A stretch of DNA of 49,237 nt from Guillardia theta CCMP2712 (GCF_000315625.1 NW_005434644.1:1-49237), one strand, 5' to 3'; positions 37,712-49,237 are shown, counted from the first letter of the stretch. Translations and numbers: made by a program. Notes: a model not told the origin generated them from the sequence alone.

Positions 37712-38627
<916 letters not shown>

Positions 38628-43047: not shown

Positions 43048-43216
43048 ACCCCCACCCTCTCTATAAGAGTACAAATGACCGGTGAGAATACATATGTATC
43101 ACCCCCACCCTCTCAATTACAGTACAAATCACCCGTGAGGACACATATGTATCACCCCCACCCTCTCAATTACAGAACAAATGACCCGTGAGAACCAATA
43201 TGTATCACCCCACCCA
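43048..43216. repeat. About 53-bp imperfect tandem repeat (3.3 copies), each starting ACCCCCACCC
   Basis: Units of the form ACCCCCACCCTCTC.AT.A.AG.ACAAAT.ACC.GTGAG...ATATGTATC. Confidence 0.85.
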
Positions 43217-43606: not shown

Positions 43607-45154
43607 TTACTTACCCCCCTGGAAGTGGATGCTCTTCAGGTCACTCCACTCCTGCTCTCCTCCTTGAGATCGTCTCAGTTGTTGTGCTCGCAGAGCTGGA
43701 AACGCCTTGAAACGAAATCCAGCTTCCCGATGCCCATGCCGGTGATCGAACCCGTACTCCTTGATGTCACAAAGTCTCCTAGCCTGGTGCTCGTCTGACT
43801 TCCAACAGTCCAGCGACGGGACCCCCCACTCTCTCCCCAGCTTGCGGTCAGCCTGACTGACGTAGAGGTACCACAGAGTCATGTCGCATACGTAGGGAGC
43901 TTTCTCTTTTTTCATGGTCAGGAGCTCAACCCCCTTTGGGTACTTGTAGATCGTGATCGCAAAGTTCATGTAATCATAAAGGATTGGGCGCGAAAGCAAG
44001 CCCGTTCCTGCCCAGGCCACCCAGTCCAAGGTTGAAAAGTTCTTGTGGAAGGGAGTGGCCGGCAGGCTGAGAGCAGAGTCGCAGTGGCGGTAGATCTTGA
44101 GGTCGTTGAGGCGGGTCAGCAGGAGCACATCAGAGTCCGTGTAGAAGACGTCGGTCCAGTCTCGCTGCAGCATCAGGGCGTACATGAAGAAGAACCTTTC
44201 GCTGTTCTGACGCTCATACGGCTCCGAGCTGCCCCAGGGCTTGTAGACCCCTCGAAATTCTTCCAACTTTGATTTCACCTTCGGCTCAGCGTCCATGATT
44301 GCATTCATGTCCACGAAATGCACATATTGATGTCTTTGATGAGATCGAGCAGTTTGAGAATCTGTGAGCAAGAATACCGTATTTCCCTTCAAGAAAGATG
44401 CAAACATTGAACTCCAAATGTATTCACCAGAGTGTAACACATTGTTAAAGATGTGAAAGAAGATATGCGGAATTGAGCGTTTCTTCTGCCTCGTTCGCAT
44501 CCTTCTTGCTTTTGCACTCCTCGAATCATTACGTCGCATACCATCGAGTGTTGGTCTGGTGCCGTTCGAGGCGTTGAAGAGGGAAAGTGAAGCATTCTTA
44601 AAGTGTGAAATATTTCGAGATTCTGACACGTTCTGAGAGTGTGGGATGTCACGATAGTCTGAAATATTCTCGGAGCTCGCAGAAATTTGGGAGGTTGCAA
44701 TCTTCTCAGAGTATGAAACATTTTGAGGGTTCGAGATGTTCTCAGAGTTGGAAATAGTCGGGGAGGTCGAATTTTCATGAGAGGGGACTGGTTGTGAACT
44801 CAGAGCAGAGAGGGGCCTCTTGCCGGAGCTGTTGCCTTCATCGGGAGCCCCGGGTTTCATGGAGTCCCTCAGTCCTCCCATCAAGTCAACACCCTTGCCA
44901 TGCTGTTCCACGGATGACACGATCTCCCGATCTTTCAGTGGTTTGTGTCTCATCTTACTCGGAGACGCCTTCGGTGTTGCTGTATCTCCCGTCACACCTA
45001 CCAAGTGCTCAGCCAAGGTCAGCTGCTTCGCTTGCCATGCCGCAGGTAGAAGGGCAAGGTCGTAGAGGGCCTTTAAGCTCTCGGTTCGCGTCGTTATCAA
45101 TGCGATGACCCCGCAAGCGAGCAACGCAGTCACAGCCAGCAGCTGCGTCCTCAT
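43607..45154 (-). CDS. Putative type II membrane GT-A-fold glycosyltransferase (a short 3' exon may follow)
   Basis: N-terminal signal-anchor, Ser/Asn-rich stem, and motifs ERFF...VFYTDSDVLL (DxD), VCDMTLW, FDH and IHFQG. Confidence 0.65.
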   Translation of the reverse strand: MRTQLLAVTALLACGVIALITTRTESLKALYDLALLPAAWQAKQLTLAEHLVGVTGDTATPKASPSKMRHKPLKDREIVSSVEQHGKGVDLMGGLRDSMKPGAPDEGNSSGKRPLSALSSQPVPSHENSTSPTISNSENISNPQNVSYSEKIATSQISASSENISDYRDIPHSQNVSESRNISHFKNASLSLFNASNGTRPTLDGMRRNDSRSAKARRMRTRQKKRSIPHIFFHIFNNVLHSGEYIWSSMFASFLKGNTVFLLTDSQTARSHQRHQYVHFVDMNAIMDAEPKVKSKLEEFRGVYKPWGSSEPYERQNSERFFFMYALMLQRDWTDVFYTDSDVLLLTRLNDLKIYRHCDSALSLPATPFHKNFSTLDWVAWAGTGLLSRPILYDYMNFAITIYKYPKGVELLTMKKEKAPYVCDMTLWYLYVSQADRKLGREWGVPSLDCWKSDEHQARRLCDIKEYGFDHRHGHREAGFRFKAFPALRAQQLRRSQGGEQEWSDLKSIHFQGGK

Positions 45155-45294
45155 CTTCTGAGCGGCTGATCTAGCGAGTTTCTAGTCACTGGTCCTCACC
45201 ATCACATGATACTTCAAGCCAGGCGGCGAGGAGAGCCTTCCAAGACCAAGAGGAGGATTTAGACTCTGAACAGACGAGGATCTTGAAGAGGTGA

Positions 45295-45370
45295 GGAGGG
45301 CAGGAGGGCAGGAGGGCAGGAGGGCAGGAGGGCAGGAGGGCAGGAGGGCAGGAGGGCAGGAGGGCAGGAG
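45295..45370. repeat. (GAGGGCAG)n octamer repeat, about 9 copies
   Basis: Read directly. Confidence 0.92.
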
Positions 45371-46712
45371 GGGAACAAGTAGTGGTACTGCTGCAAGGAC
45401 GCCCGGTTGTTTACTCGGAAAGTTAAGTTAAAAATCGGTACGAGGACCGTTGAACGGCATCCGATGATCATCCCGGGGTCCGATCGGCGGCGGCCGGGCA
45501 CTGATCGATCGCCGGGATGGCATCCGCCGCCGGCGCCGCGGCCGGGGAGACCGTCGGCGCGGCGCGGCCCGGGCCCGCCGCCCGGGGACCGCGGAGCGGC
45601 TTCAGCTGAATCCCGGAGAGTCCATTGAATCCAGTTGCCACCGTCACAGGCTCCCGGCCAGGCGGAGCCTCGGAGCGGCTGACCGACTCGGATGCGACGG
45701 TTGCCGCTGCGGGGCCCGGGGCTTCGAAAGGCTCCAGCCGGGCCCCGCGGGGAATACTCTCCGAGGCTCCGGCGAGGCTCCGGGCCCGGCGCGGCGGCTG
45801 AGTACGGGGAGTCCGACCTGACAGTGTCGCGGCGGTTAGTAGAAAAAACTGGGCGTGACCGTACTGAGCGAGAAACGGCCAACCCTCATGCGCAGTGCGG
45901 CAGTGCGTGCGCCATCATCAAAGCAGCAATTTACTTTCAAGTTTACATGCAGTGCTCGGCGGCTTGAAAGCGAAGTTGCCGCTGGGGACACTCAGTGACT
46001 GAGCGGCGCCGGGCAGCCCGGGCGGCGGCCACGCAGTGCCGGGCGTCAGACGCGGGCGGCGGGCCCGGCCCGGCCCGTGCCGCCCTCCGACTGACGGTCA
46101 CCGGGTGTCGGCGGATCGGACAGGCCGGGCTTTGGCACTGCCGGGCCCGACCGAGCCCACCTCAATTCTGTTGAGGGACCGTGATTTCAAGTTTGAACGA
46201 TCCACGCCTGTTTGAAATAGAGAACCCTACCCCCCTCCTCCACCCGTACTGCAATAGAGGAAGGGGGTCCTCTGGCATGCACCTCACCCCCGTGTTCGAA
46301 TGGCAACATGGAGAAAGACGAGGGAGGGAGGGAGGGAGGGAGGGAGGGAGGGAGGGAGGGAGGGAGGGATATGCAGATGGTAGACCAAGAATATCAAGTG
46401 AAGGGAAGAGTAAGAGAGAACATGTCGGAGGAGGCAGCATAGACACACCTGACGTGACGAACAGTGACAGGGCAGCAATGTGACCTTGATTCAACACCAT
46501 CATTGTACAATGAGGACGAACCAGAGTTGTAGTAAACAGATTCCGTAGTTCACAATGATGTCTGCATCCCCTTCTGACCTCCCATCTCCTTACATCGCGT
46601 TGATTCATCTTCATGCTTGATTCATCAGCAAACATGCACTTCGGTTCTTCTGCTGATTCCAGTTTGAACCTGAAGGCATTGCTGCAGGTCGAACAGAACA
46701 AATCGAATCAGC

Positions 46713-47767
46713 ATGGGAGGGACAGACTCTCCGAGCACGGGGACTCCGAGCAAGACAGGAGCAACTCCACGGAAGTACACACCGCTGAGAAACAGGACAC
46801 CCAACACGCCGAGCAGAGACAGCCTGGTCAAAGTGACCTTCAGCGTAAAGCATGAGATGCAGGTTGAGGACGCGAGCATGTTCGTAATCGGATCTCTCCC
46901 CTCCCTGGGGTCATGGGATCCCCGTCGAGCGAGGAAGATGAGCCAGGCAGAGGACGGGACTTGGATGATCGCCATCTACCTCCCTGAGAAGGTTGAGTTC
47001 CTGTACCAGTACTGCCTGATCCAGGAGGAGGAGGATTCTGCCCGCCAGCCCCTTATAGTCTGGCAAGGGAACATCGAGAGGAAGTGCAAGGTCGACAACG
47101 CCTCGGACACGCCTGGCAAGCAGCTCATCCTCGAGGACAACACGGCAGCCGACGGAGGGCGCGGCGAAGGGGAGCGGCAGCAGCAGGAGCTGAAAATCGA
47201 CCCGCTGGTACCAGTGGGAGCGAACTCGATGCAGCAGAAGCTGGAGGTGAAGCAGATCGAGATTGACCAGCTGCTGGAGGAGAGAGAGCGATGCCAGAAC
47301 GAGTTGCAGAAGCTCAAGGACATCATCGGTTACGCCGACAACCCCGACGACTACAAGAAGCGTCAATCCTACCTCCCTGACTTCAGCTCCCTCCTCTATG
47401 ACACCGTTCGAGAGGTCTCTCCTCCCTCCATCCCTCCTCTACTCTCCTCCCTCCTCTTTCTCCCTTCACCCCCCCTCCCCTTCTCCCTTCCCTCCTCTTT
47501 CTTCCTCCCTCCCTCCCTCCTCTTCTCTTTTCCTTCATTCCTTGCTGTTCTCGTCTTCCTGTTGCTCAGCCTTGCTCTATGTTGACTTCCCGTCACTCGC
47601 TGCCTCCTCTCTCTCCTTCCTTCTCGCTCTCTCCTCTCCTCGCTTGCCCTAAGCTTCTCTTCTCCCCAGCTGCAATCGTCCGTGCAGAGCAAGTTGCGCA
47701 AGACCTGCTCCTCCATCGCCGAGGATCATGCGTTCGAGGGAGGAAGCAGCGAAGACGTCAAGGTCTC

Positions 47768-47798
<31 letters not shown>

Positions 47799-49153
47799 CT
47801 CTCCTGAATCATTTTCAGTTGGCGTTGCAAGAGGCAGAGACGAAAGTCAACGACCTCAGAATGGTATGCTGACCCCTTGCACAGCGCTCCTCCTCCTCCT
47901 CCTCCTCCATCTTCTCCTCCTCATTATCTCCTCCTCCTCTCCCTCTTCTGGTTCTCATTTCCTCATTTCTGGACTTGCAGCGGCTGGAGCAGGCTGAGCT
48001 TCAACTGGGCGAGGCGACGGTGAGACGAGGAGGAGAAAGAGGAAAGAAAGGGGGGGGGGGCGGGGAGAGAGGTGGAGGAGAGAGGAAGGAGAGGGAGGAG
48101 GATGTTCACTGGCAGTCAGGCCCTGCATGAGGTGGAGAAGAAAGAGCTGCAGGAATACTACGAGAAGGTACTGTTCTTCCCTCCCCTCCGCTCTCTTCTT
48201 CCTTTCTCCGCTCTCTCCCACTGTGCTTCCTTCATTCCTTCCGTTCTCACTTGCTCTGTCTCAGGCTCTGGGAAAGATGGACTGCAAGGATCAAGAGGTA
48301 AAGATTTCTTCGCTCCCCCGCCTCCTCCCTCATCTCCTCCTTCTCCACTTCTCCTCACTGCTGTCAACCGCTCAGGATGCGATGAAGAGGATGAAGGTGG
48401 AGGAGAGTCGAACAATGCTGGAGGTGAGACACCGATGCCTTCCTGCCCCTCCTTCCTGCCGTCATCGAACCCCCGCCCCCTCCTCCCTCCTCCCTCCTCC
48501 CCTTCCTCCCTCCTCCCTTCCTCCCGCCTTTCTCCTCCCTCCTCCCTCCTCCCTCCTCCCTCCTCTCAGTCTTCAGCCTTCTCTTCGTCTCCCCCTCCCC
48601 TTCTTGTCCCTTCTCTCCCTCTCCACTCCCCTGATTCTTCTCCTAGAGCTCCATCCGCGTTGTGGCCGGGGAGCTCTTCGACGTCAGGCAGCAGCACGAC
48701 AAGCTGAAGGAGGAGGCGAGAAGCTTGCAGGCCCTGCTGCTGGGAGAGGAGATGAAGCAGCTGGAGCAGGCCATTGTAAGGGAGCGAGGACGAGGAGGAG
48801 CGAGGGAGGAGGAGAGGGGAAGGGGAGGGAGGAGGGGCAGAGGAGGGGCTGATTGCGAGTTGGCAGTGCGGGCAAATCGGCAGCCTCTGCGGGAGGATGG
48901 AAGAGGAGAAGGAGGAGGCGTCAGAGCGATTGAAGAAGGTCGAGAGAAGACGAGGAGGAGAAGAGATGAAGAAAATGAGCAGGAAATCACGGAGAGGAGA
49001 AGACTGCACAATCTCGTACAGGAGGTTACTCCTCCTCCTCCTCCTCCTCCTCCTCCTTCCCTGTTTGCTGTCCTCCTCCCTCATCCTCAGCTACTATTTC
49101 TCTCTCTCCTCACACTTCCTACAGCTGCGTGGAAACATTCGAGTCTTCTGCAG
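46713..49153 (+). CDS. CBM20 starch-binding domain + coiled coil + kinesin-14 neck/motor start (partial; continues past the window)
   Basis: CBM20 at about 46827-47087 (VTFSV...MFVIGSLPSLGSWDPRRARKM...TW...FLYQY...VWQ). Exons 46713-47414, 47670-47762, 47819-47863, 47981-48019, 48120-48167, 48265-48297, 48376-48423, 48647-48775, 48867-48938, 48983-49024 and 49125-49153 splice in frame to ...ERRRLHNLVQELRGNIRVFCR, the kinesin-14 neck signature. Confidence 0.85.
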
Positions 49154-49237
49154 GTGCGGAGGGAAAGAGAGAAGAGGGGGATGCAAGGGGGGTGGGGACA
49201 AGGAGGAGCGAGGAGGAGCAAAGGGGGTGGGGTGGGG

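Follow-up and report, generated by a model that had tools for sequence, protein, structure and literature searches.

Does a starch-binding module take the cargo position of a microtubule motor in a cryptophyte alga, and if so, what would it hold? The question is raised by GUITHDRAFT_107592, a gene of Guillardia theta CCMP2712 that runs from position 46713 onward in a 49,237-nt stretch of genomic DNA (NW_005434644.1:1-49237; the window) and has EKX46389.1 as its annotated product. A sequence-only reading had proposed that a CBM20 exon is joined here to a C-terminal-motor kinesin-14 that moves alpha-glucan granules, and had made part of its interest depend on a cryptophyte host; the host is a cryptophyte, the G. 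theta protein EKX46389.1 being identical to our gene model over aa 1-379.

One gene extends from the CBM20 exon to the kinesin-14 neck

The gene model comprises 11 exons (46713-49153; Table 1) and 426 codons without a stop, and its ten introns are all GT-AG and all in phase 0. It ends with the kinesin-14 neck and the first strand of the motor; an eleventh intron begins at 49154 and extends past the end of the window, and the motor core lies beyond it. The proposed joining of the CBM20 exon to the neck through ten GT-AG introns, free of stops and frameshifts, was thus upheld.

RNA mapping covered the stretch 46300-48440 and used four runs that were only guessed to be RNA, but whose contigs were spliced. 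These contigs back seven of the ten introns (introns 1-7). The GT-AG joints of introns 1, 4, 5 and 6 are each present in one contig of run X1 (2,842 nt) and one of run X2 (2,240 nt), which come from two studies, while introns 2 and 3 are backed by length only, the 50 record letters between 47756 and 47980 corresponding to the end of exon 2 plus exon 3. Intron 7 is backed by the loose letters at the 3' end of the X1 and X2 contigs, which are identical to the opening 30 bases of exon 8. A third run, X3, covers exon 1 in part only, and a fourth, X13, gave no mapped reads. The X1 and X2 contigs continue for 1,797 and 1,200 letters beyond exon 7, of which exons 8-11 would account for 272, leaving 1,525 and 928 letters past the last modelled exon. 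The X1 contig therefore leaves room for a motor, although a contig spanning two genes would not prove a single transcript.

Introns 8-10 rest on splice-model scoring, in which 95,228 GT-AG combinations yielded 9,982 models open to the motor start that were compared with seven homologs. The introns as first proposed scored highest (1154, versus 1078 for the next model and 655 for an unspliced read-through of exons 8-10); even if nothing is spliced out, the frame stays open from exon 8 as far as the neck. Exons 9-11 match the coil ahead of the neck in register with the relatives, exons 10-11 align to the start of the relatives' PF16796 region, and the spacing from the conserved stalk block to the neck is 74 aa, compared with 70-73 in eight of the ten relatives in which it could be measured and 104 in the other two. 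The earlier assignment of a kinesin-14 neck, with CBM20 at the N-terminal tail, agrees with this alignment; its reading of these exons as one gene was supported by spliced RNA for introns 1-7 and by the homolog-scored model for the remaining three.

Table 1. Features of GUITHDRAFT_107592 and of its surroundings, in window coordinates.
Feature	Position	Strand	Details
ORF, 692 aa	28884-30962	+	polycystin and PKD-channel domains
Tandem repeat	43048-43215		53-nt unit x3.2
ORF, 515 aa, single	43607-45154	-	divergent from the kinesin gene; hydrophobic N-terminus; no Pfam match at E 0.001
Tandem repeat	45294-45372		8-nt unit x9.9
Tandem repeat	46320-46369		4-nt unit x12.5
Spliced-leader trans-splice acceptor (CAG)	46685..46687	+	X1 and X3 contigs start at 46686 with leader letters
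5' UTR, 25 nt, ATG-free	46688-46712	+	between trans-splice acceptor and ATG
Exon 1	46713..47414	+	aa 1-234: leader, CBM20, linker, first coiled-coil segment; RNA joint of intron 1 in X1 and X2; identical to EKX46389.1
Basic non-hydrophobic leader, aa 1-38	46713..46826	+	four S/T-P-x-K/R sites
CBM20	46827..47102	+	aa 39-130; W68 and W117 correspond to A. niger W543 and W590; Q99 (47007-47009) in place of K578
Exon 2 (stalk)	47670..47762	+	model and RNA; in reference model
Exon 3 (stalk)	47819..47863	+	model; RNA by record length only; in reference model
Exon 4 (stalk)	47981..48019	+	model and RNA; in reference model
Exon 5 (stalk)	48120..48167	+	model and RNA; in reference model
Exon 6 (stalk)	48265..48297	+	model and RNA; in reference model
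Exon 7 (stalk)	48376..48423	+	model and RNA; in reference model
Exon 8 (conserved stalk block)	48647..48775	+	its opening 30 bases are the loose letters at the 3' end of the X1 and X2 contigs
Exon 9 (coiled coil ahead of neck)	48867..48938	+	top-scoring of the 9,982 open models compared with homologs
Exon 10 (kinesin-14 neck, first part)	48983..49024	+	homolog alignment and splice-model scoring
Exon 11 (neck end, first strand of motor)	49125..49153	+	splice-model scoring against homologs

The reference annotation tells a different story. EKX46389.1, a 381-aa product annotated as a CBM20-domain protein, ends two residues after exon 8 and short of the motor; its model appears to join exon 8 to an acceptor at 48924, followed by a stop (48776-48933). 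Two adjacent genes are thereby implied, one for a CBM20 coiled-coil protein and a separate one for a downstream kinesin, and the small size (44 nt) and purine-rich composition of intron 9, like the derivation of introns 8-10 from a homolog-scored model, are in keeping with such a split. Yet relatives derived from transcripts are fused, exons 9-11 stand in register with the pre-neck coil of those relatives, and under the short model some 1,660 nt of the X1 contig would have to be 3' UTR, so that we consider two genes highly improbable. That CBM20 and the kinesin-14 neck belong to one transcribed gene is confirmed; the reference annotation splits this gene early and hides the fusion, with the consequence that domain-architecture surveys miss it. 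A similar early split was seen in Baffinella, where KAJ1491054.1 contains the motor half alone, although transcripts show the protein as fused (P0211 versus P0212).

Relatives carry a complete, mostly internal motor

The initial homolog search returned seven proteins, six of which combine PF00686, PF16796 and PF00225, the seventh being cut after PF16796. CBM20 and the motor share one chain in the transcript-derived proteins P0003 (Hanusia phi), P0208 and P0212 (MMETSP), and at the genomic loci L004-L006 CBM20 is followed by motor exons in order on one strand. Among 12 long relatives, the P-loop is present in all 12, switch I in ten and switch II in nine, the rest being truncated. A whole motor is therefore fused to the same type of CBM20 in the relatives. 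One of nine loci, L009, was dropped as a chance match (bacterial-looking, 33% GC, E 3e-5).

The motor was compared with solved structures for the relative P0208 only; among the 135 solved kinesins that it matched, human KIFC3 was closest (5wde; E 2.6e-93, 317 bits versus 270 for KCBP), followed by Kar3 and Ncd. KIFC3, a kinesin-14B, likewise has its neck before the motor; to our knowledge it lacks a carbohydrate-binding module. By analogy with its relatives, GUITHDRAFT_107592 is likely to continue into a KIFC3-like motor. The C-terminal position originally assigned to that motor was not borne out by the relatives: the Pfam motor ends at residue 799 of 1042, 774 of 1125 and 734 of 1092 in three of them (774 of 819 in P0208), and most of the long ones have an internal motor with 240-360 more residues behind it. 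Between the CBM20 and the motor lie about 280 residues of predicted helix. A single-sequence model places long helices at aa 170-380 with pLDDT of 43-72 (mean pLDDT of 46 for the 381-aa EKX46389.1), and helix also appears in the AlphaFold2 model.

All named members of the family are cryptophytes, namely H. phi (P0003), Baffinella frigidus (the P0209 cluster and P0085) and Rhodomonas salina (the P0114 cluster), the last with a family-type CBM20 and no motor seen. A tree of 39 CBM20 rows has at least three subgroups, several of its forks being weak, and the H. phi protein, which is 44% identical to GUITHDRAFT_107592 and falls in a different group, is likely to be its paralog. The deep branching of the motor tree (12 rows, one outgroup) was not resolved. 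Word-filtered or cryptophyte-trained searches gave no red-algal or rhizarian homolog, which is no evidence of absence; no relative was found among 281 pattern matches in IMG/VR, and the ESM Atlas returned kinesin-only or CBM20-only clusters and no fusion.

Two further observations concern individual relatives. The three divergent members P0008, P0009 and P0209/P0212 have long tails that cannot be aligned, yet all close with GGWR, which might be a binding motif. P0047 (MGB1592764.1), filed under a Promethearchaeia archaeon metagenome-assembled genome, shares a 90% cluster with P0008, a kinesin of cryptophyte type, a sign that the assembly may be contaminated with eukaryotic sequence.

The CBM20 domain is conserved with an altered binding site

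PF00686 matches aa 39-130 with an E value of 6.9e-13 and 48.7 bits, against a curated cut-off of 23.3 (Pfam). An AlphaFold2 model of aa 35-234 resembles the CBM20 domains of beta-amylase, CGTase, human GDE5 and STBD1; the predicted beta-sandwich has pLDDT mostly of 81-90, and its top Foldseek matches are CBM20-bearing structures (E about 2e-7). Profile and predicted fold thus agree with the CBM20 first proposed for exon 1.

In A. niger glucoamylase numbering, W68 and W117 correspond to W543 and W590, and Q99 stands where K578 would be. The two site-1 tryptophans are named as critical and K578 was identified by NMR as a key site-1 contact (PMC9069913). Both tryptophans are kept in every family row that covers them (35 of 35 and 30 of 30), whereas among 37 family rows, picked by eye, the K578 column holds Gln in 35 and Lys in two. 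The other CBM20 domains retrieved, 199 in 107 proteins, have Lys in this column in 123 cases and Gln in 14, with 26 gapped; about ten of the 14 look like further fragments of the family. Since the 37 rows are related, the change from Lys to Gln represents one inherited change rather than 35 events; in the tree, the Gln-type family is set apart from Lys-type CBM20s including P0009 (91/80, not starred). The site-2 tyrosines Y527 and Y556 are unmatched in alignments to 1ac0 and 6frv. The Gln at position 99 makes a canonical starch binder less likely and leaves CBM20 membership, which rests on profile and fold, untouched. Judged by its sequence, the domain is conserved and undecayed, but is not a canonical starch binder. 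P0009 (1125 aa, from a JGI contig) is a CBM20-kinesin-14 with the canonical site-1 lysine that branches outside the Gln-type group, and offers a natural binding control.

Such a pattern could arise if the domain had been repurposed: an ancestral glucan binder, dating from when starch or glycogen was cytosolic, would have become part of a mitotic kinesin-14B (in spindle focusing, nuclear migration or organelle positioning) and would now have a protein or a different glycan as its ligand, with the Lys-to-Gln change as the mark of that switch. The family-wide substitution and the separation from Lys-type CBM20s in the tree speak for this account. Against it, at least three divergent subgroups all retain both site-1 tryptophans without change, as continued stacking on sugar would predict, and Gln is also able to hydrogen-bond sugar hydroxyls. 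We treat re-use of the domain as a possibility to be taken seriously, close behind the tether preferred below.

The 5' end and the leader point to the cytosol or nucleus

A 17-nt spliced leader has been published for G. theta and Hanusia phi (PMC5619915). The X1 and X3 contigs, which start at 46686, open with loose letters (10 and 9 of them, respectively) that equal its 3' part; these letters have no copy in the nearby genome, their sole match in the window searched being at 37920. With no ATG in either the spliced leader or the 25-nt UTR, the first available start codon is at 46713 and the isoform has no upstream targeting exon; an upstream cis-exon encoding a signal peptide was accordingly ruled out, the loose letters being spliced leader, and the four mapped runs show no RNA depth upstream of 46686. 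Trans-splicing here is in keeping with a report that about one in five G. theta genes undergo it (PMC5619915).

The N-terminus is not hydrophobic, the best 11-residue hydropathy of the leader being -0.74, and only two of 24 other N-termini exceed 1.8, one of them at the first strand of CBM20. By spliced-leader site and hydropathy, no periplastid-type signal peptide followed by a transit-peptide-like sequence was found. The absence of a signal peptide noted at the outset is strengthened by the trans-splice site, and from this 5' end and N-terminus the protein probably stays in the host cytosol or nucleus.

This bears directly on the idea of a motor imported into the periplastid space, where it would move starch grains along microtubules of nucleomorph tubulin. 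Starch and nucleomorph alpha-tubulin mRNA both occur in that compartment (PMC5443833), and the red-algal counterpart CMT097C (below) lives with cytosolic starch. The joining of the spliced leader 25 nt ahead of the start codon, with no other ATG in that interval, the lack of RNA depth further upstream and the low hydropathy both here (maximum -0.74) and in all but two of the 24 other N-termini argue against import, and we judge it very unlikely.

The leader contains four S/T-P-x-K/R sites against 0.33 expected, a number reached in none of 2000 shuffles. A comparable excess (p<0.01) was found in seven of 23 leaders, including those of GUITHDRAFT_107592 and the distant P0009 and P0208, and seven of the 23 tested lack a full site. 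We take this motif to be the CDK consensus; in other kinesin-14 tails, microtubule binding or nuclear entry is switched at mitosis. The four sites thus suggest cell-cycle (CDK) control of the protein.

Further upstream lies a very GC-rich non-coding stretch (about 45500-46160). At the related loci L001 (1270-2625, minus strand) and L002, an alpha-tubulin gene whose N-terminus is divergent stands head-to-head about 485 nt from the start of the ortholog, and at L003 a protein kinase gene takes its place. Conserved synteny with alpha-tubulin was rejected, as the arrangement is confined to L001 and L002 (one species, 99.7% identical) and is absent from L003 and the window.

Glucan within reach, and comparable proteins

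Cryptophyte starch is located in the periplastid space (PMC5756292, PMC5443833). Because G. theta starch thus lies behind two membranes from a protein that is likely cytosolic, hauling of starch granules by GUITHDRAFT_107592 is unlikely, and the granule motor of the sequence-only reading was not supported for G. theta starch. According to Table 2 of PMC6260743, G. theta is without GT3 and GH133, both of which the plastid-less Goniomonas has, so no cytosolic glycogen is on record; the loss also fits a repurposed domain. The same table gives nine of 17 G. theta CBM20 proteins as not predicted to be secreted. In red algae, cytosol-facing polyglucan rings form on dividing plastids and mitochondria, and the mitochondrial ring of Cyanidioschyzon merolae has MDR1 homologs in various eukaryotes (PMC6424925). 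G. theta is reported to have no orthologs of known chloroplast division proteins (PMC5443833).

The architecture was already on record. C. merolae CMT097C was listed in 2010 as a kinesin-14B of 1160 aa with the order PLAT-CBM_20-KISc (supplement of PMC2867816), and a table row elsewhere gives it as an internal-motor kinesin-14 with an LH2 domain (PMC1434745). The fusion is mentioned in the supplements of PMC2867816 and not in its main text, and CMT097C is absent from the main text of PMC2646357. We found no functional study of CMT097C, whose identifier occurs as a table row, nor of any CBM20-kinesin fusion in the literature covered, most subscription journals being outside that coverage. The expectation that no protein of this architecture had been characterised therefore stands, although the architecture had already been tabulated, unremarked. 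The G. theta case is distinct from the tabulated kind in that it is separated from the starch of the cell and has an altered binding site.

CMT097C resembles the G. theta protein in having CBM20 ahead of an internal kinesin-14B motor, and differs in a weak PLAT call that has no equivalent in GUITHDRAFT_107592 (CMT097C being compared by its table entries). Red algae keep their starch in the cytosol, so that CMT097C, unlike the cryptophyte protein, can reach it. The plant kinesins MDKIN1/2 share an N-terminal module of carbohydrate-binding type, a coiled coil and a central kinesin-14 motor, with a role proposed in division and an unknown ligand (PMC7094084); they occur in land plants and carry malectin instead of CBM20. 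With a Pfam CBM20 and no malectin, GUITHDRAFT_107592 has an MDKIN-like layout and is not an MDKIN. The glycophagy receptor STBD1 likewise uses a CBM20 without a catalytic domain to tie glucan to cell machinery (fold match 8x8k), but keeps the site-1 Lys and links glycogen to autophagy rather than to a motor (PMC12785236).

A possible tether between cytosolic glucan and microtubules

Our preferred reading, held tentatively, is a cell-cycle-regulated minus-end kinesin-14 whose CBM20 tethers cytosol-exposed alpha-glucan to microtubules. The stalk would dimerise the protein, the neck ahead of the motor would set minus-end direction, and the basic leader with its four putative CDK sites may switch microtubule binding or nuclear entry at mitosis. 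The Trp-Trp platform could still stack on glucan, at an affinity that the Lys-to-Gln exchange would lower or shift. A multivalent glucan might then gather weakly processive motors into a working team; a moss homolog of the malectin kinesins dimerises but showed no processivity, and clustering aids poorly processive plant kinesin-14s (PMC7094084). The ligand is likely not periplastid starch, and candidates would be small cytosolic glucan particles or an organelle-surface polyglucan such as the mitochondrial division ring of red algae.

Several findings count against such a tether: the Gln at K578 in 35 of 37 rows, the unmatched site-2 tyrosines, the lack of any cytosolic alpha-glucan on record in G. 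theta, its lack of orthologs of known chloroplast division proteins, the non-processive moss homolog and the seven of 23 leaders without a full CDK site. A mitotic role for a motor with a repurposed CBM20 would fit the leader with its CDK sites, the forward movement of the G. theta nucleus in M phase (PMC5443833) and the work of plant malectin kinesins in division with no carbohydrate cargo shown (PMC7094084).

The domain might instead act as a sugar sensor, binding soluble malto-oligosaccharides and tuning the motor, for example by relieving auto-inhibition, so that carbon status is passed on to division rather than a cargo being carried. The tryptophan platform is kept though no cytosolic granule is known, and there is a precedent in the CBM48 of AMPK, which senses glycogen; the roughly 280 residues of predicted helix that part domain and motor speak against such tuning, and we think it quite unlikely.

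A broader version of the tether would make CBM20-kinesin-14B an ancient eukaryotic family, in red algae, cryptophytes and Rhizaria, that couples glucan to division microtubules. In cryptophytes, whose starch moved behind two membranes, the family would have persisted, grown into three or more paralog groups and had its site retuned from Lys to Gln because it grips a hidden cytosol-facing polyglucan (for instance an organelle division ring), which would physically link the spindle to organelle fission or inheritance. We regard this scenario as unlikely as it stands.

Our literature searches turned up no motor for which direct binding of a storage or structural glucan had been shown. The red-algal CMT097C provides a knock-out system for the family. 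Should the CBM20 prove not to bind glucan, it would exemplify a starch-binding fold put to use on another ligand, a change that could be traced to a single substitution. If it does bind, the family would provide a direct route, open to testing, for the placement or inheritance of sugar polymers on microtubules; and since the cryptophyte motor and the known starch lie in different compartments, positive binding would indicate an unrecognised cytosolic glucan.
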